From an uncultured delta proteobacterium (GTDB taxonomy: Bacteria; Desulfobacterota; Binatia; UBA9968): a DNA stretch of 64,000 nt. The position numbers and the translations under genes were made by a program. The notes below the pieces were generated by a model. The model was not told the DNA's origin. It saw only the letters and a program-made list of their open reading frames with translations, and did not search any database. This document shows, piece by piece, positions 19,640 through 39,916 of the stretch. The stretch lies in contig CAVYTU010000015.1 in the NCBI GenBank assembly GCA_963771465.1, forward strand, positions 992,001-1,056,000, read 5' to 3'. Within the stretch, counting starts at the first letter, position 1. Each line of letters starts with the position of its first letter.

Positions 19640-19669
19640 GATTGCTCGCGCTGGTAATTTTCGAATTTG

Positions 19670-19860: not shown

Positions 19861-20472
19861 CTAACGCTCGGTTAGCAGCGATCGAATGTCTTTGAGAACT
19901 ACCGCCACATCGGGCGATGGGCTAATAAAGGCAAACCGCAACACTCCATGGCGATCGACGATGGCGGTGAGCGGCGTGTGATCAACCAGCCCGCGGCCTT
20001 TGCGTTTGACCCCGACGCCAAAATTTTTCCAAACCGACTTAAGAGCCGTCTCACTGCCAGTTAGGAATGACCAGCCGTCCAACTCGGCACCGTAGCGCTT
20101 GGCGTAACCCGCTAATACTTTCGGTGAATCGATTTCCGGGTCGGTCGTAACTGTCAGTAGATAGCTAGCTTTTCGTTCATCAACGGATAATTTGCTCTGC
20201 ACCTGGCGCAACGCCGCGGTAATCAACGGGCACACATCGGCGCAAGTCGTGTATGCGAAAGCGACGACCACAACTTTTCCGCGCAGCGTTTTGAACTGGA
20301 AAGAGTTGCCCGCCTGATCGGTGAGGGTGAAATCATCGATGGGTAAATTGACCTGACGGCGCTCGACCAGCTTTACTGAATGAGGTGCGCTCGCGGCACC
20401 GGCTAAACTCGTAGAACTCAAAAGCAACGCAAGTCCAATTGCGCAGAATCCCCAGCCCCGCAATGCGTTCAC
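19861..20472 (-). CDS. SCO1/SenC family copper chaperone
   Basis: Signal peptide, YTTCADVCP (CxxxC), TDPEID, conserved His (VDHT). Confidence 0.92.
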   Translation of the reverse strand: MNALRGWGFCAIGLALLLSSTSLAGAASAPHSVKLVERRQVNLPIDDFTLTDQAGNSFQFKTLRGKVVVVAFAYTTCADVCPLITAALRQVQSKLSVDERKASYLLTVTTDPEIDSPKVLAGYAKRYGAELDGWSFLTGSETALKSVWKNFGVGVKRKGRGLVDHTPLTAIVDRHGVLRFAFISPSPDVAVVLKDIRSLLTER

Positions 20473-20894
20473 AATTTCTTCTCCGTCGAGGGTTCATCGT
20501 AACCCAGCACCGCTTCCCAAGGGATGCTGCAGTGAGCGACGACCAGCGCGTCGAACTTTTCCCACCAGCTAATCTGCCGACCCTCGCGGCTCAAAAAGCG
20601 AACCATTTGAAGCATGTCGTTGATTTCGGAAGCACTCAGCGCCGGCTCGAACGCTGGCATTAACCCTTTTCCGTCCGCGATCAGCCGACGAATTTGCGGA
20701 TTGCTCTTACGCTCCACCGTGTCGCGAAAGTCCGGTGGCACAGCAGGCAAAGAGGCTGCCAGCGGTCCATCGCCACGACCGCTTATGCCATGGCAATTTA
20801 GACAACGCTGCGCATAAACCGCGTCCATCCGTTGGTTGCGACCGCACCCCACCAAAAGCGTAGTTAGGACAAGGCAGCAATTAAATAATCGCAT
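20469..20894 (-). CDS. Monoheme c-type cytochrome, putative lipoprotein
   Basis: LLVGC lipobox, CLNCH heme motif, MPAF axial Met. Confidence 0.85.
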   Translation of the reverse strand: MRLFNCCLVLTTLLVGCGRNQRMDAVYAQRCLNCHGISGRGDGPLAASLPAVPPDFRDTVERKSNPQIRRLIADGKGLMPAFEPALSASEINDMLQMVRFLSREGRQISWWEKFDALVVAHCSIPWEAVLGYDEPSTEKKL

Positions 20895-20966
20895 CACTGC
20901 CCATAAGACGTAACACACGAAACTTGCGCATCCAACTCGCGAACCTGGTCCGTCGTCGTGAACCGC

Positions 20967-20993
20967 TTGACACGATTTTTCGCTTCGTAGTAC
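20967..20993. promoter_or_regulatory. Putative NikR operator overlapping the nikR -35
   Basis: TTGACAC-N13-GTAGTAC, similar to the site at 21448. Confidence 0.5.
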
Positions 20994-21014
20994 ATATTCG
21001 GCTGAGACAGGACC

Positions 21015-21431
21015 ATGCATCATCTCTCGCGCTTCGGCGTTTCATTGGAAGAAGATTTATTGGCCGCATTCGATCTCAGCATCGGCGGCATGGGCTACCA
21101 GAACCGCTCGGAAGCGATTCGCGATCTTATTCGGGATCACTTGATCCAAAGAAAAGTCGGTCAGAGCGATACTAACGTAATCGGCGTCGTCACCCTGGTA
21201 TACGACCACAGAATTCACCACTTGGGAGATCTCCTAGCCGACCTGCAGCACAAAGCGTCGCTGGCGGTCAATGCCAGCCTGCATATTCATCTCGATGAGC
21301 ATAATTGCCTGGAGGTCATCGTGATTCGCGGCCGCGCCGACAAGGTCCATGAGGTTGCCAGTAAACTAATCGCTACCAAGGGAGTTCAAAACGGCAAGCT
21401 GGTAACGACGACGCCGGAAATGAAACACTAA
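21015..21431 (+). CDS. nikR: Nickel-responsive transcriptional regulator NikR
   Basis: RHH N-terminus (RFGVSL, NRSEAIRDLIR), YDH, QH, HIHL..HNCLEV Ni-site motifs. Confidence 0.95.
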   Translation: MHHLSRFGVSLEEDLLAAFDLSIGGMGYQNRSEAIRDLIRDHLIQRKVGQSDTNVIGVVTLVYDHRIHHLGDLLADLQHKASLAVNASLHIHLDEHNCLEVIVIRGRADKVHEVASKLIATKGVQNGKLVTTTPEMKH

Positions 21432-21447
21432 ATTTTTTTGCACTAAG

Positions 21448-21474
21448 GTAACACGAATTTTAAATTCATACTAT
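21448..21474. promoter_or_regulatory. Putative NikR operator upstream of the TonB-dependent receptor
   Basis: GTAACAC-GAATTTTAAATTC-ATACTAT pseudo-palindrome with a 13-nt AT-rich spacer. Confidence 0.55.
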
Positions 21475-21492
21475 TAGGAAGAATTTCGGGCT

Positions 21493-23538
21493 ATGCGATC
21501 GCAACTTGCTAGCACTGTCATTTTATCGTTCTGTCTTGCGCTTCAAAGCCAACCAGCTTCGGCTCAACAGACTCAGGCGAACCCGAGTTCTCCCGTCGAA
21601 GTTTACGTTTGGGGCGAGCAGCCGACATCGGCGGCAACCGAGCAGACGCGTTGGCAAAGAGATCTAGAGCTCCGTCCAACAAATACCCCTAGCGACGTGA
21701 TGCGGTTGACGCCGGGACTGATCATCGGTCAGCATCATGGCGGCGGTAAAGGCGATCAGATTTTATTTCGCGGTTTTGACTCCGACCATGGCACAGACTT
21801 CGCCGTTTTCGTCGACGGCATACCGGTTAATATGGTGAGCCACGCTCATGGGCAGGGCTACGCGGATCTTCACTGGTTGATTCCCGAAACCGTTGAACGC
21901 GTGGAAATTTATAAGGGACCCTACTTTCCTCAACTGGGTGATTTCGCCACCTCCGGCGCGATGAACATCATCACCAAGAAGAGAGATAAAGACAGCACGC
22001 TCACGCTTAGCGGCGGAAGTTATAACACCCAGCGTTATGTCGGCATATTTGCGCCGCCCGAAGGAACAATTTTAAGACCGTATATCGCCGGTGAGATATA
22101 TATGAACGACGGAGCGTTCAAGAATCCCAATGATTACATTCGCTACAATGTTCTTTCCAAATTCGGCCTCTTGCAGACCGCCAATTCCAACCTAACTTTC
22201 CTCGGAAGCTTTTTTAAGACCAGCTGGAATGCGTCCGGCGAGGTTCCGGCAAGGGAGGTTCGCAGCAGAGAGATCGGCCGCTTTGGCTCCAACGATCCGA
22301 GCGAAGGTGGAAAATCGGAACGGCAAAATTTGAGCCTGATCTATAACTACACGGACGCCAATCAGAGTTTCAACGCTCAGACTTATGTCTCCTGGTATCA
22401 ACTCCAACTCTGGTCCAACTTCACTCTGTTTCTCAACGACGAGGTGAACGGTGACGGCATCGAACAGAGAGATAAACGATTTTTAGCCGGCAACAACATC
22501 AATTACCGGCGCAATTACAAGCTGGCCGGTTTACCCATGGAGACCTTCGTTGGTTTTCAAAGCCGCTTCGATCACATCCGCGTCGGCCTCTTCAATCAAA
22601 CCGACCGACGGCGGCGGGAAACAGTCAAGAACAACTACGTCAACCAAACCAACTTGGGCTGGTTCGTTCAGCAAGAGATCCGTCCCACTTCTTGGTTGAG
22701 AACGCAGATCGGCGCGCGCATGGACAATTTCTGGTATGACGTCAAACAGATCGGTGAAGTCACCGAACCGATCTCGGGCGAAGGTTCTGCGACCATCGTC
22801 AATCCCAAGCTCAATTTTATCTTCACGCCGTTCGCTGATAACAACGTCGCCAAAGCGACCAATCTATTTCTCAACTTCGGCGGCGGCTATCACAGTAACG
22901 ACGCCCGGGTATTCGTCCAGGATCCCGATAAGAAAATTCCCCGTTTCTGGGGCGGCGAGCTCGGCGCCAAGTCACGTTTCTTTGACCGCTTGGACATGAC
23001 GCTGTCTTACTGGCGCTCCTATCTTGACAGCGAGCTGGTGTTCGTTGGCGACGCGGGCGGCTTCGAGCCCAGCGGCGCCAGCCGCCGTCATGGCGTGGAG
23101 AGCGAGTTTCGTTATGACATCCTGCCGTGGCTAACTTACGATCTCGATCTCTCGTATACCTGGGCAAAGTTTCTCAACGGCGACAAGGTTCCTTTAGCGC
23201 CGCGTTTCCTCGCGTTTACCGGAATTACCGCGCGCCACGACTCCGGAATTCAGGCACGCTGGCAAATGCGTCATATCGGGCGGCGCTATGGCATTGAAGA
23301 CGGCAGTATCATGACGCCCACTTCGACGATATTCGATTTGTTCCTAAAATATGTTTGGAAGCGCTATGAGTTCTTCGTCCAGTTCCAAAACTTGGCAAAT
23401 ACGAAATGGCGCTCGGCAGAGCACGTGTTCGAGTCGAGACTTGCGACCGAACCTTCCGGCATCGCGACTCTTGATTCCCACTTCACACCCGGCGATCCGT
23501 TCACGGTGAAGGCGGGGATTACAATTCACATGTGGTAA
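21493..23538 (+). CDS. TonB-dependent receptor, probable nickel/metal uptake
   Basis: Signal peptide, plug (FRGF, VDGIPVN, IPETVERVEIYKGPY) with His motifs QHHGGGK and HAHGQGY, C-terminal aromatic residue; follows nikR. Confidence 0.92.
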   Translation: MRSQLASTVILSFCLALQSQPASAQQTQANPSSPVEVYVWGEQPTSAATEQTRWQRDLELRPTNTPSDVMRLTPGLIIGQHHGGGKGDQILFRGFDSDHGTDFAVFVDGIPVNMVSHAHGQGYADLHWLIPETVERVEIYKGPYFPQLGDFATSGAMNIITKKRDKDSTLTLSGGSYNTQRYVGIFAPPEGTILRPYIAGEIYMNDGAFKNPNDYIRYNVLSKFGLLQTANSNLTFLGSFFKTSWNASGEVPAREVRSREIGRFGSNDPSEGGKSERQNLSLIYNYTDANQSFNAQTYVSWYQLQLWSNFTLFLNDEVNGDGIEQRDKRFLAGNNINYRRNYKLAGLPMETFVGFQSRFDHIRVGLFNQTDRRRRETVKNNYVNQTNLGWFVQQEIRPTSWLRTQIGARMDNFWYDVKQIGEVTEPISGEGSATIVNPKLNFIFTPFADNNVAKATNLFLNFGGGYHSNDARVFVQDPDKKIPRFWGGELGAKSRFFDRLDMTLSYWRSYLDSELVFVGDAGGFEPSGASRRHGVESEFRYDILPWLTYDLDLSYTWAKFLNGDKVPLAPRFLAFTGITARHDSGIQARWQMRHIGRRYGIEDGSIMTPTSTIFDLFLKYVWKRYEFFVQFQNLANTKWRSAEHVFESRLATEPSGIATLDSHFTPGDPFTVKAGITIHMW

Positions 23539-23633
23539 AGCGATGGCTCTCGGCGACGGCAATTTGATTTCCGTAGCGCGGCGAAATAAGAAACGAAGAT
23601 TACTTTGAATTTTGAAAGCTCACCCGATCAAAC

Positions 23634-24866
23634 ATGGATGAAACAGTAGTTAAACAAGACAGCACAATTCAACGCCAAACGATTTTCGCAATCGTCTGCG
23701 GCGGCCACTTTATCAACCACTTCCAGTCCGCCATGCTCGGCGTGATCTACCCGCTGATGATGAAAGAGGTCGGCATGAGCTATTTGGCGATCGCCTCGCT
23801 CGCCAGCGTCTACAACTCGCTCGGCAGCATCTTGCAGGCGTCCTACGGCTTCATCGTGCCCTATCTCCCTCGCGGTGTGATCCTCGGCATCGGCAATTGC
23901 CTGCTCGGACTCTCGGTCGTCGCCACGGGTTTCGCATCGACGTTCAATCATTTTTTCACCGCGCGCTTGATTGGCGGCATCGGCTCGAGTCCGCAGCACC
24001 CGGTTGGCTCGAGCATGCTCGCCAGCCATTTTGGTGCCGCCCGTGGCCGCGCCTTGGCGTTTCACACGACCGCAGGACAGATCGGTGGACTTTTAGCGCC
24101 GCTGTCAGCCGCGCTGTTGGTCACCTGGTTCGGTTGGCGTGGAGTCTTTTGGTTCATCGGCTCGTTGACCATCATCGTCGGGCTGATCTGTTTCGTGTTC
24201 CGCGATAGTCTTCGCAACGCGACGCAGAACAAACCGAAATCGCGCCTCGCGCCGGCCGGCTGGGAAGCCTATAAAACCTGCTTGAAGAATAAGAATATTA
24301 TGCTTGTCTCGCTGGTGTTCATGGCCGGCGCCGCCGGACGCGGCCAAGATATTAACGAGGTCTACATCATCCCCCATTTCGTCCATGATTTTCATTTGGA
24401 AATTACCCATGCCGCGTTTCTATTCACGCTCGTGCAAATCGGCAGCTTAACCGGACCGTTTGTTTGGGGCTGGATCTCAGATCGTTGCAATCGCAAGCTG
24501 GTTATCCAGGCTTCACTGTTAATGTCGGGCCTATGCACGCTCTGGCTCGCATGGCAAGAAACGGTCTCTGCCGGTCTGTTCGTCAATTTAGTGGTTTACG
24601 GCGCGGCCGTCACTTCGCGTCAGACACTTACCCAGGCTTTACTCGCCGACCTCGTCGGCGAAGAGCTCTACGACGCCGCCTTTAGCCTTTACTATTTTAT
24701 CGGTTTTATCTCGATCCCGTTTTGGACCGTGATCACCGGCGGCGTTATGACCAAGTACGGCTTCGGTCCGGCCTTCAGCGTGATTTCAATCTCGTATCTG
24801 CTCGCGATGAGTCTGCTGATGCTGCTGCGTATGCCGCGCCAGGAACAGAGCTTTGCTAATACTTGA
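23634..24866 (+). CDS. MFS transporter (FSR-like)
   Basis: About 12 hydrophobic segments, GWISDRCNRK loop motif, HFINH in TM1, QHP motif. Confidence 0.9.
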   Translation: MDETVVKQDSTIQRQTIFAIVCGGHFINHFQSAMLGVIYPLMMKEVGMSYLAIASLASVYNSLGSILQASYGFIVPYLPRGVILGIGNCLLGLSVVATGFASTFNHFFTARLIGGIGSSPQHPVGSSMLASHFGAARGRALAFHTTAGQIGGLLAPLSAALLVTWFGWRGVFWFIGSLTIIVGLICFVFRDSLRNATQNKPKSRLAPAGWEAYKTCLKNKNIMLVSLVFMAGAAGRGQDINEVYIIPHFVHDFHLEITHAAFLFTLVQIGSLTGPFVWGWISDRCNRKLVIQASLLMSGLCTLWLAWQETVSAGLFVNLVVYGAAVTSRQTLTQALLADLVGEELYDAAFSLYYFIGFISIPFWTVITGGVMTKYGFGPAFSVISISYLLAMSLLMLLRMPRQEQSFANT

Positions 24867-24887
24867 TGACCACGCCGAATATATCCT

Positions 24888-25664
24888 ATGAAAGAACAAT
24901 CCCTCGGCATTTCGCTAATTTCTTCGCTGCTCCTCCATGCTTTGGCCTTGGTCGGGGCCGCCGCATTAGTGCACCACGACAGTTTAACCAAACAAGAATT
25001 TTTCAGCGTAAAGCTAGTTGATATTCAATCATTGAGCGAAACCGCGGCAACGCCCGCTGAGAAGAAATTGCTAGCTATCGCCGAAGCGAAAAGGCCCAAC
25101 GAAATCAAACCTGCGCTGAAAAGCCAGAGTTCCGAACCTGAACCGCCAGCGACTCCCAGCGCCAAAGATGAGACCAAACCCGCCTTGCCGGCCAAGGCTG
25201 AAGCTCCCACGCCGCTCGCTACCGCTCGCGTCGAAGGCGGCGGCAGTGAAGCCGGCACAAGCGCGCTGTTTGGGCGCGGCGACGCTGGACTTCTGCCGGG
25301 CTCAGGCTCGGGTGGCGGTGGCAGCGCAGAAGTAGGATTGGGCCGCGGCTCAGGCGCGCCGGGATTTTCCTCTCAACAGGCAATCCTTAGAACCAACCGT
25401 GAAGCCAAACCGATTCAAACCGCACGCGCGATGTATCCAGCGATGGCGCTCCGCGCCGGCCTCGAAAGCGACGTGACCCTGAGAATCGAAGTCGATCCGC
25501 AAGGAACCGTCATTGAGGCGGAAATCATTAAAAGCGGCGGCGCCGGCTTCGACGACGAAGCGCTCAAAGCAGTAAAGCAATCGCGCTTCGAGCCGGCGCA
25601 AAAAGGTGGACAGACTGTGCCAGCCGAATTTACCTTCGTCTATCGTTTTCGTTTGCAGCGCTGA
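24888..25664 (+). CDS. tonB: Energy transducer TonB
   Basis: SSLLLH TM motif, Pro/Gly-rich linker, YP...FDDEALKAV...FEPA C-terminal domain. Confidence 0.9.
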   Translation: MKEQSLGISLISSLLLHALALVGAAALVHHDSLTKQEFFSVKLVDIQSLSETAATPAEKKLLAIAEAKRPNEIKPALKSQSSEPEPPATPSAKDETKPALPAKAEAPTPLATARVEGGGSEAGTSALFGRGDAGLLPGSGSGGGGSAEVGLGRGSGAPGFSSQQAILRTNREAKPIQTARAMYPAMALRAGLESDVTLRIEVDPQGTVIEAEIIKSGGAGFDDEALKAVKQSRFEPAQKGGQTVPAEFTFVYRFRLQR

Positions 25665-25854
25665 TTGAATCCGCCCAAGTCAGACAAATCCGAAACAGTC
25701 GCTTACTCGCTATTTCAATTTCAATTGCGGAATTCGGGTTAAATGATTCCAAGCTGGAAACGCATGGTAAAGCTCAAATCAATTCCCTTGTCGGGCTGTA
25801 GCGCTTTCGACCGCACCGAATTTATGGTGAAATAGCCGCCAAGGAGATTGTCGC

Positions 25855-26271
25855 ATGAACCATCGCTCACTAACGACCGCAGCCGCGTTGATCCTCGCCC
25901 TACCGTTTTCCGCCGCCGGACAACACGACCACGGCAAAAGCACGACGCCGGCGGCAAAACAATCGACGGCAAAGAAATCGCCGCCGGCGCTCGCACCCGC
26001 CGAAGGCGCGAGTATCAAGATACTCACGCCCACCAAGGGACAAACTTTCAAGGGCGACAAAGTAGAGATTAGTTACAAACTCACCAAGGGTAAACGCGGC
26101 CATCACGCGCACGCCTACATTGACGGCGAGCTCATGGGCATGTTTGAAAGTGACAAAGGCACGCTCAATGGCATTAAGTCCGGTAAGCATGTTTTGGAAT
26201 TGCGCGTGGTCGCCACCGACCACAGCACCGAACTGGACGCCAGCGACAAAGTCGAGTTCACGGTGAAATGA
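25855..26271 (+). CDS. Small exported His-containing Ig-like protein (DUF4399-like)
   Basis: Signal peptide, QHDH N-terminus, GHHAHAYIDG, GKHVLEL...DH motifs. Confidence 0.7.
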   Translation: MNHRSLTTAAALILALPFSAAGQHDHGKSTTPAAKQSTAKKSPPALAPAEGASIKILTPTKGQTFKGDKVEISYKLTKGKRGHHAHAYIDGELMGMFESDKGTLNGIKSGKHVLELRVVATDHSTELDASDKVEFTVK

Positions 26272-26338
26272 ACCCAAAGTCCGTGCTGCCCATAGAGCTT
26301 GCGCTGATGGGTTCGAACGACTAACATCGCAATCCACG

Positions 26339-26734
26339 ATGTACAGCGGCCAACACATATCAAGTTTCATGCGCGGCCTGTCCTTGCACGCCGCCGTCGC
26401 ATTGCTGCTTTTCTTGGTTCTCTCGCCACCCCATCGGGTGCACCATATTTTCGAGCAATTCACTGCGCCGCAATCGATCGGCCTTGCTAACGCAAGCGTT
26501 CACGATCATGGCGACAGCCACCACGAAAATCATTCACCGGTGCCAGCGCCCACTGCGCAGCCAAACGATTGCGCCGTACTCGCTGCAACACAAAACGCCC
26601 ATTCGCTGGCCGCCTGGTCTTTCGATTTGACAGTTTTCACCGCGGCAGTCGAACACACACAAATAAATTCGACCGAATCTGCGTTCTCATTCAACTTCGC
26701 ACCCCGCTCCCAACGCGCGCCGCCGCGCGTCTAA
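26339..26734 (+). CDS. DUF2946-like exported peptide with a C-terminal RAPP arrest motif
   Basis: Hydrophobic signal region, HRVHH, HDHGDSHHENH, single Cys, ends in PRSQRAPPRV*. Confidence 0.75.
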   Translation: MYSGQHISSFMRGLSLHAAVALLLFLVLSPPHRVHHIFEQFTAPQSIGLANASVHDHGDSHHENHSPVPAPTAQPNDCAVLAATQNAHSLAAWSFDLTVFTAAVEHTQINSTESAFSFNFAPRSQRAPPRV

Positions 26735-26870
26735 GCTTTCATTCGCAACTTGCATTCTTAACCCGGGCAAGCCCAGCGCGTTTTTCACTAAACCCGTTGG
26801 GCAACACGCCCGATGAGAAGTTGTTCCAGCGCGTCCAATGCGATGCGATTCCATGCGATGGAGGAAGGCG

Positions 26871-28732: not shown

Positions 28733-28766
28733 AGTTTGTCTCAAATTTTAATCATTTACCCGAGCC

Positions 28767-30711: not shown

Positions 30712-30818
30712 AAGCATGATCAGCTTGGCGCCGCTAGCAGCGCAGTTTTTTTTATGTTTAATTGATTCAACGGAAACGTTTTCCATTTTGCGCATTGGAT
30801 GAATGGGGAGGTAATTCT

Positions 30819-31379: not shown

Positions 31380-31432
31380 AACGTGCGGCGCGTTGAAGCG
31401 ATCGCGCGCCATCCGCGTCAAACCATCTGCCG

Positions 31433-32320: not shown

Positions 32321-32915
32321 ACAGCTTGGCGCCGCGATGCTCGCGGTCGCTTTGCTACCATCGACAGCTCGGTCGCATATCCCGATCCCGCCCAAACAGC
32401 CAAGCGAAATCGGCCGGCGCGTCGTCAAAACCGCTGTGCCCGATTTCAAACTGACCGATCAGAACGGTAAACAATTCCAACTCAGTAGCAAACGGGGAAA
32501 TCTAGTTCTCACGACGTTTATCTTCACCACCTGCCCCGACGTATGTCCGCTATTTACCGCCAAGTTTGCCGCGATCCAGCGCGCCTTGGACGACAGAAAA
32601 TTCAAAGACTATTGGTTGCTCAGCATCACCACCGACCCGGAGCATGACAACGCAGCGGCATTGAAGGATTACGCCAACCGGTTCAAAGCCGACTCAGCCC
32701 ACTGGTCGTTTCTCACCGGCACGCGGTCGGATTTGACAAAAACGTGGAAAGCCTTTGGCGTCAACGTCACCAGGACCGAAGCTGGACAGGTTTTTCACAC
32801 TGCACTCACCACTCTCATCGATCGGCGCGGCAACCGCCGAGTCGATTATTACGGTGACAAATGGCTCGACCAAGAAGTGCTCAAGGATATCCAGTGGCTG
32901 AGCTCGCAAAAATGA
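32295..32915 (+). CDS. SCO1/SenC family protein
   Basis: FTTCPDVCP, TDPEHD, VFHT; start uncertain (32295 or 32337). Confidence 0.9.
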   Translation: MSSRLRVTEQLGAAMLAVALLPSTARSHIPIPPKQPSEIGRRVVKTAVPDFKLTDQNGKQFQLSSKRGNLVLTTFIFTTCPDVCPLFTAKFAAIQRALDDRKFKDYWLLSITTDPEHDNAAALKDYANRFKADSAHWSFLTGTRSDLTKTWKAFGVNVTRTEAGQVFHTALTTLIDRRGNRRVDYYGDKWLDQEVLKDIQWLSSQK

Positions 32916-33478
32916 TCCCGCGCCGAGCGTTAACGCTTTTTCTTACACTGCTATTCACTCATTGCCTTGTAACACCGGCAAGCGCAGCCCAGCGCGAGCA
33001 AGGCGTGCTGGAGATTCAAATCAAAGATCATCGCGACGCGATCGGCGATTTCGCGAAGCTAAATATCACCATCGAGAAATTCTCAATTAGCCCGAAACCA
33101 GCGTTAAAGATTTGGCAACCCAACTGGAAAGAAATCAGCTCCACATCCTCACCGGTTGACTTGACCCAATATGTAGGAAACAAAACTGCAAGAATATTTC
33201 GCGGCACGATTGATGCCGGATCGTTTGATGCATTTCACCTAAAGATCAAAACAATCGACGGACTCTTGAAGAAAAAACAGCGCTCCGTACGGGTGAAAGA
33301 CAAGACCGGTCCGGTTAAACTTTCTTTCGACATCAAACCAAAGGGCGAAACCATTTTGATTCTCGACTTCGTGGTATCGGATATGTCCGATCACCCACCG
33401 CTCGGTTATGAACTCGGAATACGGGGGCTCGAACTTTTTACCAACGGCAAGCTCGTTGAGAAAATCCCGCCGGGGTAA
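32912..33478 (+). CDS. Exported DUF4382-like protein
   Basis: Signal peptide, LEIQIKD...LNITI...ILDF pattern; overlaps the SCO stop (ATGA). Confidence 0.65.
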   Translation: MIPRRALTLFLTLLFTHCLVTPASAAQREQGVLEIQIKDHRDAIGDFAKLNITIEKFSISPKPALKIWQPNWKEISSTSSPVDLTQYVGNKTARIFRGTIDAGSFDAFHLKIKTIDGLLKKKQRSVRVKDKTGPVKLSFDIKPKGETILILDFVVSDMSDHPPLGYELGIRGLELFTNGKLVEKIPPG

Positions 33479-33700
33479 ATCATCAATCCAGAATGAAGGT
33501 TCTTTTCTGTTTTATCTTCTCCTTTTTTCCTTCCTCCTCATTCGCTTCTGGCAATATTGACCTTTACTGCCTACCCATCACACGCTAGCGTGAGAGGATC
33601 GCACCAGCATCGTTGTCAGGAGTTCATTCGCCGATCGACCTCGGTTGACTGGTTTCTCCACCGCTCGTATCTTGTAGCTTACTGAAGCTCGGCCGGCTCA

Positions 33701-35245
33701 ATGACAGTGTACAAAAATCCCGAGAACATCTCCGAATCGGCAACGCCATGGTTACTGCTCACATTGCTGTGTCTCGGGGGAGGCTTCCTTCGGTTCTACA
33801 ACTTCTGGAATTCCCCGATGTGGGTTGATGAATACGGGAGTTGGTGGATTGTATCAGCTCCTACTTGGAGTGAAGTGACCGAGCGAGCCCTGAAAACTCA
33901 GGGTCAGTCCCCTTTTTATTATGTTCTGGTCAAATTTTTCACAAATTTTTTGGGCGAAGGCCCTTTTCAGTTGCGCCTACCTTCTGTCATTTTTGGTATC
34001 GCTAGCCTCGCCCTCGTGTACCCCATAGCAATTCGAACATTTCAACACCGACAAGTAGCGCTCACGGCAGTTGTGGTATTTAGTCTTAGCGAGCGTCTCA
34101 TATGGTATTCTCAAAATGCCAGGCCCTACGCTCTTGCACTTCTTTTAACAATGCTCTCGTTTTTGTTTTTTCACTCCACCGCACATGCCAAGTCGATAAG
34201 CCACAAAATCGGATACGTGCTAGCGACCTCATTACTGATCTATGCACATTTTGTGTTCTGCTTTATCGCTATTATTCAGGTTATCTACCTAATATTCACA
34301 AAAGGTTGGCGCGAGAGCTTCTCTAAGACCTGGCTCCTTCCATTTCTCTGTATTGCATTTCTTTGCCTACCTCTTACCAGCCAATTGATCAGTTTATTTA
34401 AGCGGCGAGCTACTCTAGATTGGGTGCCCTACGTAGATCGACCAAATATAGTTGTTCAGTCTTTTTTGATTCTATTTGACCTATGTCACCCCTGGATATT
34501 TCTGGTCACGATTGCTGCCCTATTTTCCGTCGGCTTTAGACGCAATGAGCCACACGAGTTGAGCCGACGAGAAGGTCTTCGGCTTTTTTCGTGGTGGTTT
34601 ATTTTCCCCTTCGTCGTTTTTAGTACAATTCCGTCGTTGCTCGGGATAACACTTTTTCACCCCCGATATTTACTTTTCACCTATCCCGCAGCGTTTTTCC
34701 TGTTAGCTTGGTTCATGAACCATGTAAAACCAACTGATTGGCGCAGATGGATCCCAACTCTGGCATTTGCGATGTCGAGCACTATCTTTATCTTGATTCC
34801 TTCGCTCGGTAGGTCCGGTGCCTTCAGTTCCGGTTCGCGATGGGATTGGACCGACGCAGTGCGGGTGTTGGCGACATCAGCCAAACCCACAGATCTGATT
34901 ATATATCGTACTGGGTTAGTTGAGGCTGATTTGTTTGCCGCCGGTTCTCCAAAATCCTATCTACAATCCTATGTTGGCTGGCCGATAATCGCCAACCTAC
35001 CAACAGGTCACTCGTACGAGCTCGTCAGTTTACCTTTTCGATTGGGCGATCACACCCGCGCGTATTTTGTCTCCGTCGCGAAACTGGCAAGTCATTACAA
35101 TCGTGTATGGGTCATAGGTGAGGGAGAATTAACAGCACTCTTTGTCAAAACAATGATCTCAGACTATCGATTTCGCGGCGTACATAACTCCTCCCATGAG
35201 AAAGTGCAAGTCACGTTGTTGGAAGGAACTTTACTCGGTCCTTAG
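33701..35245 (+). CDS. GT-C fold glycosyltransferase (GT39/ArnT/PMT-like)
   Basis: WVDE, SPFYY, LRLPS, YSQNARPYAL motifs; multiple TM segments; more AT-rich than its neighbours. Confidence 0.85.
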   Translation: MTVYKNPENISESATPWLLLTLLCLGGGFLRFYNFWNSPMWVDEYGSWWIVSAPTWSEVTERALKTQGQSPFYYVLVKFFTNFLGEGPFQLRLPSVIFGIASLALVYPIAIRTFQHRQVALTAVVVFSLSERLIWYSQNARPYALALLLTMLSFLFFHSTAHAKSISHKIGYVLATSLLIYAHFVFCFIAIIQVIYLIFTKGWRESFSKTWLLPFLCIAFLCLPLTSQLISLFKRRATLDWVPYVDRPNIVVQSFLILFDLCHPWIFLVTIAALFSVGFRRNEPHELSRREGLRLFSWWFIFPFVVFSTIPSLLGITLFHPRYLLFTYPAAFFLLAWFMNHVKPTDWRRWIPTLAFAMSSTIFILIPSLGRSGAFSSGSRWDWTDAVRVLATSAKPTDLIIYRTGLVEADLFAAGSPKSYLQSYVGWPIIANLPTGHSYELVSLPFRLGDHTRAYFVSVAKLASHYNRVWVIGEGELTALFVKTMISDYRFRGVHNSSHEKVQVTLLEGTLLGP

Positions 35246-35495
35246 GCACATCAATGCATAATTTTCCATCACAATTCTCTGCTTCAAGATGACCTAAAAA
35301 AGAGCAGCGATTACAAACAACGCGTTTCCAGAAACAAGGGATGACACCATGGAAACTCCGATGTCGACCTGTAAAGCAATTTAAGCAATAAGCTTGGCGC
35401 GTGCTCGAGAACGTTGAAAGTTACCTAGAGCGAATGGGCATCATTCTCCGAGAGATTGTGCTTGCTACAAAAGTGGTACCCAATCGAGAGCCCGT

Positions 35496-35507
35496 CTCTA
35501 CACAAAC
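35496..35507 (+). repeat. 12-mer CTCTACACAAAC, copy 1 of 3
   Basis: Identical at 35496, 35934 and 37147. Confidence 0.8.
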
Positions 35508-35549
35508 CGTAAAATTCTAGAATGCCTTCTGTTCAGATTTTTCCCGATC

Positions 35550-35733
35550 ATGGATGCTTCAAATAACCTATTTCTATTATTCAGCGCCGCGTCGTCGTCC
35601 TGGAGATCGTGCTCGGAACGGCGCTTCGGCTGAAGTTTGAACCACAACCTCTGCTTGGGCCGTGGAATGACAACGGCCCGGACGGGCTAAAACAGTACGG
35701 TGCGGTGCCAGATTTTAGCTTGATGGAGCGGCG
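35550..35733 (+). pseudogene. Degenerate duplicate of the 5' end of the SCO gene at 37204
   Basis: Shares GTCGTCGTCCTGG.GATCGTGCTCGG and GTGGAATGACAACGGCCCGGACGGGCTAAA with 37204-37385; has indels and is truncated. Confidence 0.85.
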
Positions 35734-35744
35734 CGTTGCATGCA

Positions 35745-35930
35745 ATTGAGAATATTTCCCAACGTGTAAACCCCCGATAAGTGCCAATCCGAGAATGTAC
35801 CCACTCTGAAGGTTTGCCCAAAGGACCAGGAGAATTGGAAACAGGGAGTAGTGGAATTTCTTACTCTCGGTTTGATGGGACTCGATAAATTGTCTAGCGA
35901 GCCAGTGAACAAAGAAGTCAGCGGTGGCTT
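35745..35930 (-). pseudogene. Fragment of a GT-C-like membrane protein gene
   Basis: Translates FPILLVLWANLQSGYILGLALIG, resembling the WANLHGG motif; no start or end context. Confidence 0.45.
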
Positions 35931-35933
35931 GAA

Positions 35934-35945
35934 CTCTACACAAAC
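35934..35945 (+). repeat. 12-mer CTCTACACAAAC, copy 2
   Basis: Exact copy. Confidence 0.8.
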
Positions 35946-36012
35946 GGTACGCTAATCGAATTTCCGTCGATATATGTTTTGCAAGAACAGAACGATCGAC
36001 CAGTGCGCACAG

Positions 36013-36984
36013 CTAGTTTTTTACAACGCGAATAATCATGATGGGATTATAGGATTCATCGCCAAACGCTAAACTCCATTCACTCGAACAGTTCAGACAT
36101 TGATCACCACGTGAAGTGAACCAAAGCAGCACTTCATGATATGAGACCGAAGTACAAGCATCGCTATCGTTAACCCAGTATTGCTCATAGTTCGCGTCTA
36201 ACTTGATAAAGTGCAGACGTGATGGCCCACCGCCAAACCGAGAGCCCAGAGAGCGCAAAAAGCGCACCTGGCGGGATTGAAGGTTGTAGAACGCTGAGGA
36301 GTCGGCGATCAAGGTCGTCGCTTTCTTGAGCTTGCCCCAAATGTTGAAATCGCTGTAGGGCCGCACACGATAGCCTTGTGCGGCGTAACGATCGACGTCG
36401 TTGCCGACGAGAAGAAGAATATGTCCACCCGGTTTAACGACACGTCGCATTTCCAGGAGCGCTTTTTCAGGGTTGGGAATATGTTCCAGCACCCAGATCG
36501 ACCACAGCGCGTCAAATGAATTATCTGGAAACGGCATATTGGTCGCCGACGCTTCGACAAATGGTTTATGAAAAAAATGACGCGCGGTTGCCGAAATATC
36601 CAGAGCCGTGTAATCATCGACGATATCTTGGAGAAGGCCGCTTCCAGCGCCAACTTCCAAAACTTTTTTGTCTTTCAATCCAAACTTCGCAACAAACTCA
36701 GCGACGGTTGCCGGAATCTTCGCCCTGAAAGCTGCATCCCGCGCAATGTCGATATAGAATTTATCCTGTGCCGATACGGGCACAGTCGAGGATGGTGGGA
36801 TTGTGTCCTTGGTCAGCTTGGATTCGCTGGAATAGGCCTGCTCATAAAAGCGACGAGGCTCCGAGTTCAACGATTCATCACCTTGTGGATCGATACTCCA
36901 GGGAAAGGTTATCGCGGTTGCGATGGCACTGGCGAGTACTAGGCATGTATAGCCAATTATCAAAAAACACCTGATTGGTTTCAT
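36013..36984 (-). CDS. Class I SAM-dependent methyltransferase with N-terminal TM
   Basis: VLEVGAGSG, PFPDNSFDA, VLEHIPNP, RVVKPGG motifs. Confidence 0.88.
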   Translation of the reverse strand: MKPIRCFLIIGYTCLVLASAIATAITFPWSIDPQGDESLNSEPRRFYEQAYSSESKLTKDTIPPSSTVPVSAQDKFYIDIARDAAFRAKIPATVAEFVAKFGLKDKKVLEVGAGSGLLQDIVDDYTALDISATARHFFHKPFVEASATNMPFPDNSFDALWSIWVLEHIPNPEKALLEMRRVVKPGGHILLLVGNDVDRYAAQGYRVRPYSDFNIWGKLKKATTLIADSSAFYNLQSRQVRFLRSLGSRFGGGPSRLHFIKLDANYEQYWVNDSDACTSVSYHEVLLWFTSRGDQCLNCSSEWSLAFGDESYNPIMIIRVVKN

Positions 36985-37146
36985 ATAATCGTCACCGCGG
37001 GTTGACTAATCTTGCGCGAAAAAGCTGTAGCAGAGATTAGATCTCGCATCCCTCGGATCATCGTACTGAATTCTAACAGATGATGAGCCACGACGTCAGC
37101 AAAAATACTCCCACCGGAGAACTAGACACAGCAATCTTTCCATCGA

Positions 37147-37158
37147 CTCTACACAAAC
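37147..37158 (+). repeat. 12-mer CTCTACACAAAC, copy 3
   Basis: Exact copy upstream of the intact SCO gene. Confidence 0.8.
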
Positions 37159-37203
37159 GCTTAATTTCCCGATAAAATCCCGTCTGGCTAATCTGCTCCG
37201 CTC

Positions 37204-37848
37204 ATGAACGATTCAAAACGTTTCTTGTTATTCAGCACCGCGGTCGTCGTCCTGGGGATCGTGCTCGGCACGGCGCTTTGGTTGAAGCTCGAACCGCAGC
37301 GTCAACTCGGGGCGTGGAATGACAACGGCCCGGACGGGCTAAAGCAGTACGGCGCGGTGCCGGAATTTTCCTTGATGGAGCGGAGCGGCGCCGGCGTCGA
37401 TCTTGCCCAGTTGCGTGGCAAGATCTGGGTTGCTGACTTTATCTACACGACTTGCACCGACACCTGTCCGTTGCAAACCGGCATGATGGCAAGGTTGCAA
37501 GAAGAGTACGCCTCCAAGCCCGATGTCCATTTAGTTTCGGTCACCGTCGATCCCGAACGTGACACGCCCCAGACTTTGTCGCTCTACGCCGCAAAGCATG
37601 GAGCGGATGCCAAGCGCTGGTTATTTTTAACCGGACAACGAGATCGCATCATGAATCTGATTCGCGACGGTTTTCATTTAAGCGTGGCAACCTTGCCCAA
37701 CAGCGCCGAGCCAACCGGCATGATCCCGCACAGCCCGCGCTTTGTTCTGATCGACAAAGAGGCGCGTATCCGTGGCTATTATGACAGCCGCGAACTCGAA
37801 GCGTTTGTCCGGCTGAAAAATGACATTGACACGTTATTGAAAAGTTAA
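37204..37848 (+). CDS. SCO1/SenC family protein
   Basis: N-terminal TM, YTTCTDTCP, VDPERDT, IPHS. Confidence 0.93.
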   Translation: MNDSKRFLLFSTAVVVLGIVLGTALWLKLEPQRQLGAWNDNGPDGLKQYGAVPEFSLMERSGAGVDLAQLRGKIWVADFIYTTCTDTCPLQTGMMARLQEEYASKPDVHLVSVTVDPERDTPQTLSLYAAKHGADAKRWLFLTGQRDRIMNLIRDGFHLSVATLPNSAEPTGMIPHSPRFVLIDKEARIRGYYDSRELEAFVRLKNDIDTLLKS

Positions 37849-37863
37849 AAGGAGCCTGTCCCG

Positions 37864-38739
37864 ATGGCGCAAGAGACCAGAAGCAAGAAAGGTAAGCAAC
37901 CGGCGGCAAAAGGATTATTACGCGCCGGACCGAATTGGCCGCTGTTTATTCTTGCTCTGCTCGGCATGGTGTTGTCCGGCTACCTCACTTTTACCGCTTG
38001 GCAAGGCAGGCTCGTCGCCTTTTGCACCGAAGGCGCCGGCTGCGACCTCGTGCTTAACAGCCGTTGGTCGACGCTGTTCGGCATGCCGACATCTTTTTGG
38101 GGTTTTCTCACCTATGGTTTGCTCGCCGCGGTGGCATGGAACCGTTATGCCGATAATCAGTGGCGCTGGGCTTGGGTCATTTCGCTCTTCGGCTTGCTGT
38201 TCAGTTCCTATTTGACAGCTATTTCATTTTTTGAGCTCAAGGCCGCTTGTCCCTATTGCCTCGCGTCGCTCGGCATTATGGCGGCGATCTTCGTCATGAC
38301 AACCCTGCAACGTCCGGCGAATCTACCCAAATTTTCTTGGGGGCCATGGCTCGGCAAATCACTCGGCGCGGCGGCCGCAGTGATCATCGCGCTTCATCTC
38401 TATTTCGCCGGGTATTGGGGCGACGCGCCGGGACCGGAAGATCCCTGGGTCAGGAATCTGGCTGAACATTTGACCCGGTCAGACGTCAAATTCTACGGCG
38501 CCTCATGGTGCCCGCATTGCCAAGATCAGAAAAAATTGTTCGGCAGCTCTGTGAACCGAATACCATATATCGAATGTAGCCCAGGCGGGCCCAATACGCC
38601 CCAAGCAGCGGAATGTAAGACAAAGGGTATTCAGACCTATCCCACTTGGATCGTTAACGGTCAGCGGCATACCGGCGTGTTACCCCTCGATACCTTGGCC
38701 CAACTGAGCAAATTCAACTACCAGGGAGGAAAGCCGTAA
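37864..38739 (+). CDS. VKOR fused to a C-terminal thioredoxin-like domain
   Basis: FCTEGAGC..VLNS, CPYC, then FYGASWCPHC and YPTW. Confidence 0.92.
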   Translation: MAQETRSKKGKQPAAKGLLRAGPNWPLFILALLGMVLSGYLTFTAWQGRLVAFCTEGAGCDLVLNSRWSTLFGMPTSFWGFLTYGLLAAVAWNRYADNQWRWAWVISLFGLLFSSYLTAISFFELKAACPYCLASLGIMAAIFVMTTLQRPANLPKFSWGPWLGKSLGAAAAVIIALHLYFAGYWGDAPGPEDPWVRNLAEHLTRSDVKFYGASWCPHCQDQKKLFGSSVNRIPYIECSPGGPNTPQAAECKTKGIQTYPTWIVNGQRHTGVLPLDTLAQLSKFNYQGGKP

Positions 38740-39206
38740 TGCACGTGTCGTCGGGGAAACAAATATTAATCTTCGCTCTCGTCCTGAGTTGGAGTGCGAT
38801 GGCAATCCAGACAAATGCCAATGCCGATCCGTCGAAGTATCCGGAGTTTGCCCAGCAAACTCTGCCGGAAAACGTTACGCCGGCTTTTATCAACGTCGAC
38901 GAATTGGTCGAACTGGTGAAGGCCGGCACCAAGCCGATGATCATCGATGTGCGCACGGACGAAGAGTTCAAAGAAGCGCATATCCTAGGCGCCATGTCCG
39001 CGCCGCTCGCGGAATTCAAAAATTTCGTCAAAGACATTCCTCGCGATCGGCCGGTCGCGCTCTATTGAGCCTGTCCCCATCACCTGGCCAGTTTGGCCTA
39101 TGGCATTCTTTATGAAAACGGTTACCGCAACATGAAAGTGCTCGACGAAGGCATCAAAGGTTGGCACGAAAAACGCTACCCGATGGCCGGAACCCTGTTC
39201 CGTTAA
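38739..39206 (+). CDS. Exported rhodanese-like protein, probable selenoprotein (UGA at 39066-39068)
   Basis: IIDVR..EF...HI.GA; the frame continues past TGA as Y-U-ACPHH...GYRNMKVLDEGIKGW to TAA 39206, completing the domain; hairpin downstream of the UGA. Confidence 0.85.
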
Positions 39207-39215
39207 GCGTGACCG

Positions 39216-39908: not shown

Positions 39909-39916
39909 GTCTAAAT

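Follow-up and report, generated by a model that had tools for sequence, protein, structure and literature searches.

Why should a regulator of the NikR type, whose known relatives respond to nickel, stand beside a long row of genes for proteins of the families that elsewhere deliver copper to respiratory oxidases? The question is raised by positions 19861-39206 of the 64,000-nucleotide stretch of DNA analysed here (the window: positions 992001-1056000 of contig C15 in the genome G000, 6.9 Mb in 19 contigs, of an uncultured soil bacterium of Candidatus Binatia). A first-pass annotation of this interval had proposed one NikR-headed, nickel-controlled pathway. The reading that we prefer, and to which we would give a probability of roughly 55%, is of a composite envelope locus made up of a NikR-switched uptake module, a copper operon controlled by a peptide with a C-terminal RAPP motif, and a redox module of SCO, VKOR and selenoprotein genes. 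The copper role ascribed below to each protein is the one suggested by its family membership and gene context.

How might such a locus work? In module A (about 20.9-25.7 kb), NikR would bind two boxes resembling GTAACAC-N13-GTGTTAC and would control its own gene together with those for a TonB-dependent outer-membrane transporter (TBDT), an MFS transporter and TonB, and possibly also a divergent cytochrome c-SCO pair. Module B (25.9-33.5 kb) would be an operon for copper acquisition and insertion: a periplasmic, His-rich immunoglobulin (Ig)-like domain (HisIg), found fused to CopD in relatives, would handle copper; the nascent peptide of gene g08 would, by analogy with CruR of Bordetella, stall the ribosome at RAPP, with the consequence that downstream expression would follow the metal status of the periplasm; a TlpA-like protein would keep the cysteines of SCO and its client reduced; and SCO, three Cox11-derived proteins and a DUF4382 protein would pass copper to cuproproteins of the membrane or periplasm. 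In module C (37.2-39.2 kb), SCO, a VKOR-thioredoxin (Trx) protein and a selenocysteine (Sec) rhodanese may provide quinone-linked thiol/selenol redox chemistry in the same envelope compartment.

A neighbourhood conserved across Binatia

Genes were called from a listing of open reading frames (ORFs) and from Pfam profiles, with NCBIfam profiles for selected proteins, and all those that the first-pass annotation had listed in the interval were found there, each where it had been placed. Most of the products are predicted, from N-terminal hydrophobic segments judged by eye, to be exported or membrane-anchored. The comparison set comprised 61 related genomes, whose records are labelled Candidatus Binatia or, under an older name, 'delta proteobacterium', with families f1 (n = 36), f2 (n = 5) and f3 (n = 19); tallies over relatives include the unpublished genome G005, and those for oxidases and multicopper oxidases also G035, though none of the claims made here depends on these two by themselves.

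Relatives of the third Cox11-like protein occur in 47 of the 61 genomes, usually as three genes in tandem in the window's own genus and as one in two sister families. Among 20 fetched loci, Cox11-like and DUF4382 genes were adjacent in every one, and the third SCO gene (SCO_c) and the VKOR gene lay downstream within the fetched stretch in 15. The full order, found genus-wide (for example at loci L032, L023 and L031), runs nikR-TBDT-MFS-TonB-HisIg-RAPP-propeller-TlpA and continues as Cox11-like-methyltransferase-Cox11-like-SCO-DUF4382-SCO-VKOR-rhodanese-QueC; the core of Cox11-like, DUF4382, SCO and VKOR genes (with the rhodanese in some loci) is also kept in f2 and f3. A scan of one genome per species gave 48 further loci with the same neighbourhoods, nearly all titled Binatia. 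The cluster is lineage-wide and syntenic across Candidatus Binatia, and because it recurs in this way the earlier proposal does not fall on the ground, which it had itself named, that the genes might fail to co-occur in related genomes.

At L031 (G020:C45:151300-171299) the orthologous cluster lies in many frame pieces, affecting the rhodanese, SCO_b, all Cox11-like, propeller, MFS and TBDT genes; this reflects either a decaying locus or an error-prone assembly.

NikR, its boxes and the uptake genes

The genes and sites around nikR are as follows.

19861-20472, minus strand: SCO_a, SCO1/SenC family (PF02630, 92.5 bits; motif TTCADVCP)
20469-20891, minus strand (ORF to 21023): mono-haem cytochrome c with CLNCH (Pfam Cytochrome_CBB3, 39.9 bits)
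20967-20993, upstream of nikR: NikR box 1, TTGACAC-N13-GTAGTAC (22.4 bits)
21015-21431, plus strand: nikR (Pfam NikR_C 90.6 bits and RHH_1 33.4 bits, both above the cut-offs)
21448-21474, between nikR and the TBDT gene: NikR box 2, GTAACAC-N13-ATACTAT (29.9 bits)
21493-23538, plus strand: TBDT (Pfam Plug 59.5 bits, TonB_dep_Rec_b-barrel 63.3 bits)
23634-24866, plus strand: MFS transporter (Pfam MFS_1, 168.1 bits; in NCBIfam, generic sub-threshold MFS matches only)
24888-25664, plus strand: TonB (Pfam TonB_C, 66.4 bits)

The regulator aligns over its full length with the NikR proteins of Pyrococcus (2BJ1, 123.7 bits) and Helicobacter (86.9 bits). A stretch QH...LHxHxDEHNCLE is conserved against the solved structures, LH.H.DEHNCLE and the upstream QH being identical in the 2BJ1 alignment; QH...LHIHLDEHNCLE of the window is matched to QH...LHVHMDEHNCLE of 2BJ1 and to THIHMDEHNCLE of Helicobacter pylori NikR. 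The aligned histidines and cysteine (His, His-x-His and Cys) are presumably the nickel-binding residues. In H. pylori, NikR controls FrpB4/FecA3 and ExbBD-TonB.

The two pseudo-palindromes that had been noticed proved to be the two best NikR-type sites in the genome. Scored with a weight matrix built from ten orthologous sites at five other loci, the window's own sites being excluded, box 2 and box 1 rank first and second in the 6.9 Mb (29.9 and 22.4 bits), the next best site reaching 17.5. A strict consensus scan (GTAACAC-N13/14-GTGTTAC, in either orientation, with up to three mismatches) was set aside: it returned 278 scattered matches genome-wide without recovering either of the two boxes, and the weight matrix was therefore used instead. 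The left half of box 1 also contains TTGACA, a -35-like hexamer. In 7-nt half-sites, 13-nt spacing and orientation the boxes match the signal published for delta-proteobacterial NikR, GTGTTAC-N13/14-GTAACAC, in the reversed orientation given for Desulfotalea (PMC545781).

Similar sites recur in relatives. The nikR flanks of ten loci contain TTGACACG-N11-CGTGTTAC upstream of the gene and GTAACACGA...GTGCTAC between it and the gene that follows; sites orthologous to box 1 are present at L026, L032, L049, L059 and L074, sites orthologous to box 2 but outside the training set at L023 (27.8 bits) and L031 (26.9 bits), and in f2 there are NikR-type sites of 16.5-19.9 bits upstream of a znuA-like gene. 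Throughout 1.29 Mb of related loci, sites of at least 15 bits occur only beside nikR, apart from one remnant at L051, a locus without nikR. The weight-matrix scan of the cluster gave no NikR-type site before g07 (the HisIg gene), g08, the propeller gene or SCO_c, or elsewhere in it. As judged by sequence, then, this is a canonical NikR with operator-like boxes before transporter genes, and both its binding to the boxes and nickel as its signal seem probable, given that its metal site is conserved and that operators of this type have been published.

Does NikR also govern the chaperone genes? The first-pass annotation had placed it at the head of the whole set, a view that is contradicted by the restriction of the boxes to the neighbourhood of nikR and by the separability of NikR from the Cox11-like genes. 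NikR_C is found in 24 of 36 f1, five of five f2 and none of 19 f3 genomes, and Cox11-like genes in 31, three and 12, respectively. Three genomes that are 95-98% complete (G015, G022, G024) have the chaperone cluster without NikR, and three others (G025, G027, G030) have NikR with no Cox11-like match; since each thus occurs without the other, the two are separable. The further idea that the downstream genes belong to a single nickel pathway is also hard to sustain, the chaperone operon having what is likely to be a regulator of its own, of the CruR/DUF2946-like kind, which we describe in the next section.

The plug of the TBDT contains several histidines (QHHGGG, SHAHGQG), and the similarity of this protein to PDB sequences is at the level of the plug only (e.g. 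BtuB, Cir). The translated MFS transporter has a His cluster, PHFVHDFHLEITH; no MxxxM or HxxxM, which we take to be the motifs of CcoA-type copper importers, was seen in that translation. Module A resembles known NikR regulons in the RHH plus NikR_C architecture, the nickel-site residues and the placing of boxes before transporter genes. It differs from them in its importer, which is TBDT, MFS and TonB here and a ZnuA/PsaA-like cluster A-I ATP-binding cassette (ABC) system in relatives, in place of NikABCDE, NikMNQO or NiCoT; in the lack of hydrogenase and urease from the genome; and in being embedded in a copper-chaperone cluster.

Other importers appear in the same position in relatives. At L026 (816-1940) and L059 (from about 2560) a distant MFS-like gene (27-28% identity), with a His-rich N-terminus, directly follows nikR. 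A ZnuA/PsaA-like cluster A-I ABC importer (binding protein, ATPase and permease) lies alongside the chaperone core in each of the three families (for example L025:3385-6213, L045:591-3450 and L033:8897-11706), its ZnuA-like component being matched in more than 30 fetched loci. The binding protein has His, His, His and Asp at positions judged by eye to be metal ligands, and against PDB sequences the L033 protein matches generic Mn/Fe/Zn cluster A-I binding proteins. This ZnuABC-like importer is missing from the window's own genome, where the best match is 25% identical.

On the other side of nikR, SCO_a is divergent from it and coupled to the cytochrome c gene; the start of the latter is inferred to be the Met of MRLFNCC (20891), because the long ORF overlaps nikR. 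The cytochrome has a lipoprotein-like leader. At L024, L030, L032 and L051 the cytochrome c-SCO_a pair lies beside genes for RNase Y and 5-FTHF cyclo-ligase.

The candidate copper operon and the redox genes

From 25.9 kb onwards the RAPP peptide, the extra copper genes found in relatives, and the SCO and Cox11 families together point to copper. The genes concerned are as follows.

25855-26271, plus strand: g07, HisIg, a His-rich Ig-like periplasmic protein of 138 aa, from its translation (no Pfam match above threshold)
26339-26734, plus strand: g08, a CruR/DUF2946-like membrane-anchored RAPP peptide of 131 aa (C-terminus QRAPPRV; RAPP codons at 26714-26725)
26871-28190, plus strand: BNR/sialidase-like beta-propeller, exported or a lipoprotein (Pfam BNR_2, 37.9 bits)
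28187-28732, plus strand: TlpA/ResA-like periplasmic thiol-disulfide oxidoreductase with WCDPC (Pfam AhpC-TSA, 98.4 bits)
28767-29648, plus strand: Cox11-like 1 (Pfam CtaG_Cox11, 20.8 bits, below the cut-off of 25; motif ECGLL)
29761-30711, plus strand: Cox11-like 2 (CtaG_Cox11, 33.1 bits; motif QCGFL)
30762-31379, plus strand (likely start 30819): methyltransferase of the S-adenosylmethionine (SAM) fold with an N-terminal hydrophobic leader (Pfam Methyltransf_31 and others)
31433-32320, plus strand: Cox11-like 3 (CtaG_Cox11, 36.2 bits; motif ECALL; invariant H235 and C251)
32295-32915, plus strand (ORF from 32217): SCO_b, SCO1/SenC family (PF02630, 92.0 bits; motif TTCPDVCP)
32912-33478, plus strand (ORF from 32861): DUF4382 protein, lipoprotein-like (Pfam DUF4382, 36.9 bits)
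37204-37848, plus strand: SCO_c, SCO1/SenC family (PF02630, 97.0 bits; motif TTCTDTCP)
37864-38739, plus strand: VKOR-Trx (PF07884, 93.7 bits over residues 25-147; C-terminal WCPHC)
38739-39206, plus strand: exported rhodanese-like selenoprotein candidate (in-frame UGA at 39066-39068, in LY-U-A-C-P-H-H)

What kind of regulator could g08 be? PMC9426467 describes CruR of Bordetella as an exported upstream ORF of the DUF2946 family, in which arrest at RAPP keeps the downstream operon transcribed, while copper sensed by a CXXC motif that is needed for the purpose relieves the arrest and leads to Rho-dependent termination; homologues of CruR are there found to head operons with TBDT, PepSY, Sco, PCuAC, CopC, YcnI and AhpC_TSA genes. 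Peptides with C-terminal RAPP or RGPP are enriched upstream of genes for TonB receptors, copper chaperones and thioredoxin/DsbA, as reported in PMC12992588. RAPP is invariant in all 12 aligned homologues of g08, two residues before the stop, and 14 of 17 distinct C-termini end in (S/I)(Q/R)RAPPxx. The family has a hydrophobic segment, an invariant PHRVHH, a His-rich stretch and one invariant cysteine, Cys78 (in DCxxL or NCxxQ), and seven of its 12 members are matched by Pfam DUF2946 at E of 5 or less, the best at 1.7e-5. The distance from the Cys motif to RAPP is also kept, with 44 residues between position 81 and R126.

Set beside the cruR-crtA(bfrG)-crpH operon of Bordetella pertussis, g08 shares a small, probably exported product that resembles DUF2946 weakly, RAPP two to three residues from the C-terminus, a position at the head of a putative copper operon, a spacing of about 45 residues between Cys motif and RAPP (44-47 here), a long untranslated stretch before the following gene (136 nt here), TBDT and TonB genes in the neighbourhood, and a probable link to heme-copper oxidases. 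It differs in that the TBDT gene lies upstream under NikR-type boxes rather than downstream of the RAPP gene, and in what follows the peptide: a Cys-rich propeller, TlpA, Cox11-like, SCO and DUF4382 genes here, TBDT and PepSY_TM in Bordetella. The TlpA (AhpC_TSA), SCO and Cox11-like genes downstream, and CopC-like and CopD genes in relatives, do fit the wider range of CruR contexts given in PMC9426467. By analogy, g08 is a candidate ribosome-arrest regulator of the downstream operon.

As a lead only, a fold of 26735-26870 with a minimum free energy of -64.4 kcal/mol (z only -1.89; 10 of 200 shuffles were as stable) brings bases immediately past the end of g08 into pairing with the GGAGG in front of the propeller gene. 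A ribosome stalled at the RAPP of g08 would cover the pairing partner of this GGAGG.

The HisIg family matches Ig-like Pfam models weakly (BiPBP_C in 19 of 31 members) and has invariant H84, H86, D122 and H123 (31 sequences). In relatives the same domain forms, by in-frame fusion, the C-terminal domain of CopD-family proteins, full-length fusions being found at L045, L052, L044, L048, L022, L046 and L074. At several loci of the same genus a weak CopC-like ORF comes next after the RAPP gene, and then DUF4198, a CopD-HisIg fusion and a free HisIg gene, from which arrangement we infer that HisIg occupies a CopC- or YcnI-like position.

Cox11, ScoI/SenC, TlpA, PCuAC and CcoA all take part in the delivery of copper to proteobacterial oxidases, and the same families recur here: a Cox11 fold, SCO proteins with CxxxC...H and a TlpA-like reductase, all membrane-anchored or periplasmic proteins with an MFS importer nearby. 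A profile of the Cox11-like family matches Sinorhizobium meliloti Cox11 (1SO9) at E 3.4e-19. Cox11-like 1 has a predicted transmembrane helix, an alpha+beta domain of about 150 aa and a Cox11 Ig-like domain. In an AlphaFold2 (AF2) model of Cox11-like 3 (predicted local distance difference test score, pLDDT, 90.7) the C-domain superposes by Foldseek on apoCox11 1SO9 with a template-modelling (TM) score of 0.68 and a root-mean-square deviation of 2.8 A over 112 columns; at the N-terminus a helix spans residues 2-27, followed by a low-confidence linker, and as the translation is hydrophobic here it is predicted to be a membrane anchor. An atlas search with the N-domain gave best scores of 0.84-0.88, to unnamed or NTF2-like clusters (DUF4878, DUF4864, MecA_N), which serves as a lead only. 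In contrast to canonical Cox11, these proteins have that extra domain, are triplicated, in no copy retain the second Cys of CFCF, and have His for a Phe. The locus as a whole differs from the proteobacterial delivery system in that the genome has no PCuAC, DUF4382 and HisIg are involved and the cluster is unlinked to cox operons.

DUF4382 has invariant KDHRxAIxDF and SDHP motifs (41 sequences) and is met with in the literature on archaeal glycoproteomics. In f3 it is fused in frame to Cox11 (ORFs of 476-479 aa at L034, L035, L038, L039 and L040), and this fusion ties it to Cox11 function. The Pfam profile finds DUF4382 in only one of 19 f3 genomes, though tblastn detects the domain in the fetched f3 loci, so that the profile is unusable in that family. 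A complex prediction for the Cox11-like C-domain with DUF4382 scored 0.00, which gives no verdict and is uninformative either way.

The propeller ORF opens at 26838, and homologues start at the Met at 26871. The family comprises 753 homologues, with 439-aa forms; in 34 aligned sequences CECC (246-249) and CPH (305-307) are invariant. TlpA scores 115.3 bits against NCBIfam ResA and 61.5 against TlpA, both below the cut-offs. The methyltransferase between the Cox11-like genes is conserved in the genus; its best NCBIfam match is to a protein-lysine N-methyltransferase (135.9 bits against a cut-off of 200). Translational coupling, which had been claimed for several genes, can be read directly from the sequence as start-stop overlaps at propeller/TlpA (ATGA), SCO_b/DUF4382 (ATGA) and VKOR/rhodanese (TAATG); the likely start of SCO_b overlaps the end of Cox11-like 3.

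All three SCO proteins keep both the CxxxC (CADVC, CPDVC and CTDTC) and the distal His (DHTP, FHTA and PHSP). SCO_c is conserved alongside VKOR in f1, f2 and f3. We take the C-terminal part of the VKOR protein to be Trx-like, from its CxxC motif and the known bacterial VKOR-Trx fusions.

Is the rhodanese a selenoprotein? There is strong comparative support for this candidate. TGA stands at the same codon in all 21 distinct orthologous sequences, and the 45 residues downstream of it are conserved. A hairpin, GGCCAGTTTGGCC, which may be a SECIS element, lies at 39086-39098, 20 nt past the UGA (13 nt, 5 bp, GUU loop), and is exact in 17 of the 21; in stability, the predicted fold of the 60 nt that follow the UGA does not surpass shuffled sequence (z 0.89), with no covariation to count. 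The genome has the Sec machinery, with tRNA-Sec (anticodon tca) at C13:400988-401082 and SelA (536.9 bits), and an RNA-library contig without differences over 38683-39104 spans the TGA. The best NCBIfam match, sub-threshold, is to NF041203, rhodanese_LYCAU (56.7 bits against a cut-off of 115). Like the selenoproteins of that family, the protein has a single rhodanese domain, a putative Sec in the active-site loop after L-Y and Sec machinery in its genome; unlike them, it has L-Y-U-A-C where the family name implies L-Y-C-A-U, a signal-like leader and translational coupling to VKOR-Trx. A second candidate selenoprotein, surfacing as a weak SCO-family match with one internal TGA, is an exported AhpC/Prx-like protein at about 823.3-823.9 kb of contig C14 of the same genome (minus strand), with the in-frame TGA in YRGYW-U-TFC.

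Between DUF4382 and SCO_c the conserved order is interrupted by two genes (span 33701-36984, from Pfam):

33701-35245, plus strand: PMT_2-type glycosyltransferase
36013-36984, minus strand: methyltransferase

PMT_2 was matched in none of the 20 fetched loci and the opposite-strand methyltransferase at L032 alone, and the GC content drops to 0.468 at 34001-36000, around the pair. We therefore treat it as a probable strain-variable insertion outside the conserved system. Downstream of the rhodanese come QueC (39216-39908), a DUF58-like gene and several large ORFs (39216-46692); QueC and DUF58, both so labelled from their translations, hold this position throughout the genus. On the other side, some 5.5 kb before the cluster begins, all of an rRNA operon (5S, 23S, tRNA-Ala, tRNA-Ile, 16S) is present at 8793-14294 on the minus strand; it accounts for an ORF-poor stretch at 8.6-14.5 kb.

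Clients, rival readings and meaning

Which proteins would receive the copper? The first-pass annotation was right in finding the window free of oxidase, hydrogenase and urease genes. Oxidases are encoded elsewhere in the genome, however: two intact A-type heme-copper oxidase operons lie outside the window, neither with Cox11.

Contig C15: ACIII, SCO, CoxII with cytochrome c, CoxI, CoxIII
Contig C12: CopD-like, CoxII, CoxI, CtaA, CtaB, CoxIII, CoxIII, DUF420

Matches to PF04442 in the genome are the three window genes only. No PCuAC and no multicopper oxidase was found in the genome, and a search with the profile for copper membrane monooxygenase (CuMMO, PF02461) was blank but uninformative, its positive control being blank too; with these blanks, that for CuMMO lacking a working control, the oxidases are the only cuproenzymes identified. 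A multicopper oxidase was rejected as client, there being none in the genome itself and no co-occurrence with the Cox11-like genes in relatives. Since neither operon has Cox11 and the window paralogs are the genome's only Cox11 homologues, the two A-type oxidases are the most likely clients of the chaperones. The first-pass annotation had named as fatal to its proposal a control of the downstream genes that was independent of NikR and responsive only to copper, or an explanation of them by a standard oxidase operon. Some way has now been travelled towards both, by inference: regulation seems independent and points to copper (a likely regulator in the operon, copper genes in relatives), and there are oxidases, in two operons without Cox11, that could explain the chaperones. 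A third CoxI, at C12:47757-48717, is in at least five frame pieces with an internal TAA, about 3 kb upstream of a ctaG gene, and is either a pseudogene or an assembly error.

A number of observations weigh against the composite reading, some of them touching the oxidases as clients, some g08, and some the independence of the modules. The C15 oxidase operon carries its own SCO; a Bacillus-type CtaG is encoded at C12:51855-52586; six near-complete f3 genomes (G038, G042, G054, G057, G059, G060) have a heme-copper oxidase and no Cox11-like gene; and the second Cys of CFCF occurs in none of 42 genus-type (f1) Cox11-like rows. In view of these four points the Cox11-like set is not demonstrably required for the oxidases. 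Canonical Cox11 needs both CFCF cysteines, so the part of a classical CuB chaperone may be closed to the genus-type paralogs, which have C251 and a family-specific invariant His235 in the column where 1SO9 has Phe; this loss and the evidence from the oxidases suggest that their coordination chemistry or their client may have changed. Among single-copy f2 and f3 orthologues, by contrast, QCFCF is retained in 12 of 14 rows, and PF04442 scores reach 85-105 bits. The g08 peptide itself scores 14.3 bits (E 0.072) on DUF2946 against a cut-off of 23.7, though the match is full-length (profile positions 5-117 of 117), and the second Cys of the motif is lost, leaving the single invariant Cys and the His-rich stretch in place of the CXXC of Bordetella CruR.

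As to the independence of the modules, nikR lies within 20 kb of a Cox11-like gene on the same contig in 17 of 30 NikR-positive genomes, most of the others being fragmented, and in f2 the order is nikR, box, znuABC-like genes, Cox11, DUF4382, SCO and VKOR with short gaps, the box preceding znuA and Cox11 following znuB after about 100-155 nt. No terminator or promoter signal separates the modules: scans of 19600-39400 gave 12 promoter-like sites (mean of shuffles 11.6) and 30 terminator-like sites (mean of shuffles 25.7), and being no better than shuffles they cannot set operon boundaries. Four soil metatranscriptome libraries, from four studies, contain contigs that are at least 95% identical to the interval; those of library X8 cover 29 of its 30 bins, all except 22905-23565, and run from Cox11-like 2 into the methyltransferase, from DUF4382 into PMT_2 and, across the TGA, from VKOR into the rhodanese, while most bins have no cover in libraries X18-X20. 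Such contigs are no proof of transcription, as DNA carry-over is possible, and they show neither levels nor transcript ends. Nor is a nickel client evident. The window's genome gave no [NiFe] hydrogenase, urease beta subunit or LarA, a urease-alpha match is marginal (23.6 bits), and a profile search for Ni-SOD (PF09055) was blank but uninformative, as its positive control was also blank; hydrogenase is present in two and urease in 11 of the 61 relatives, at most eight of the 30 NikR-positive genomes having either, so that most have neither. NikR is thus kept, almost always beside the cluster, with the usual nickel enzymes wanting (the searches did not extend to glyoxalase I or acireductone dioxygenase), and no stronger argument is left for tying NikR functionally to the importers and the chaperones.

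Such a tie could take the form of a single copper-supply pathway, the importers bringing metal for the neighbouring chaperones and the NikR-family regulator gating the route, either because nickel excess shuts off a promiscuous uptake system or because NikR responds to copper itself. The proximity of nikR to Cox11-like genes, the f2 gene order and the scarcity of hydrogenase and urease all fit this, as does the fact that two unrelated importer types adjoin the core across the three families (TBDT/MFS/TonB in f1; ZnuABC-like in f2, f3 and part of f1); in Bordetella, moreover, a TBDT is dedicated to copper for oxidases (PMC12914433). Even so, we think it unlikely. The metal site and the operator of NikR are of the nickel-regulon type, NikR is missing from all f3 genomes though importer and core persist there, and the window's genome has lost the ZnuABC-like importer. 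Its TBDT has no specific likeness to any solved copper TBDT, and the MFS transporter is His-rich and without the Met motifs of CcoA-type copper importers. The low probability that we still allow the nickel pathway of the first-pass annotation, in which copper-chaperone folds would have taken on the loading of nickel, or of some different metal, into an unspecified envelope metalloprotein, is owed to the same upkeep of NikR without the usual nickel enzymes; it is the reading to which we give the least credence of all. In its favour, NikR and its boxes are borne out, CFCF is gone from the genus-type Cox11 paralogs, which keep an invariant His and Cys, HisIg, g08, the TBDT plug and the MFS protein are all His-rich, and the genome yielded no hydrogenase or LarA and only that marginal urease-alpha match. 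Yet the phyletic distributions of NikR and of the chaperone set come apart, the chaperone operon contains no NikR box, it has a likely regulator of the CruR-like kind and gains CopC-like and CopD genes in relatives, and the ancestral-type orthologues keep the copper motif CFCF; we know, moreover, of no periplasmic nickel enzyme that requires such a pathway. A search for literature naming Cox11 together with NikR found none.

Might the client be encoded within the operon? The CECC/CPH propeller could be a metallo- or redox enzyme of a new kind, with TlpA, SCO and the Cox11-like proteins as its maturation factors. No other protein of the cluster is as well conserved (64-75% identity among loci, where the Cox11-like proteins show 30-60%), the Cys and His motifs of the propeller are invariant, its gene overlaps that of TlpA and travels with it in the genus, and the oxidases have alternative factors in their own SCO and CtaG. 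Propeller and TlpA are, on the other hand, missing from f2 and f3 loci that keep the Cox11/DUF4382/SCO/VKOR core, and from L024, L027 and L030 of the same genus, which keep Cox11-like genes; and the AF2 model (pLDDT 81) has a generic sialidase-like or propeller fold only (TM about 0.6), with the motif loops at lower confidence (block means 70 and 60). We regard this client as quite doubtful. It seems a little more doubtful still that the importers gated by NikR, the His-rich RAPP peptide that lacks CXXC and the Cox11 paralogs with a single Cys and a His make up one system, which would sense and traffic in the periplasm a metal other than Cu(I), either Ni(II) or Cu(II), and load it into the propeller as a new envelope metalloenzyme, with thiol/selenol chemistry from TlpA, VKOR-Trx and the U-x-C rhodanese. 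Were that so, there would be no earlier example of oxidase-assembly folds giving a periplasmic pathway dedicated to inserting nickel, or copper outside the oxidases, and the arrest peptide would sense metal through a new ligand set. With these alternatives weighed, the composite envelope locus remains the reading that we prefer.

The first-pass annotation knew of no described system with this combination, which stands for the whole; most of the parts match described copper systems, and the novelty lies in several unusual variants among parts of known copper-trafficking kinds. The Binatia are abundant, uncultured bacteria of soil and sponges whose metal handling is unstudied, and in this locus nearly all the known classes of envelope copper factor stand together in a single conserved neighbourhood. 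Where NikR persists without hydrogenase or urease, the purpose of nickel sensing becomes a question in its own right. Among the variants are Cox11 proteins that lack the canonical CFCF site and yet have an invariant His/Cys pair, and a secreted candidate selenocysteine rhodanese coupled to VKOR. Fusion to Cox11 gives DUF4382 a first functional context, as fusion to CopD does for the His-rich Ig domain, and a CruR-type RAPP peptide without CXXC would widen the range of ligands open to nascent-chain metal sensors.

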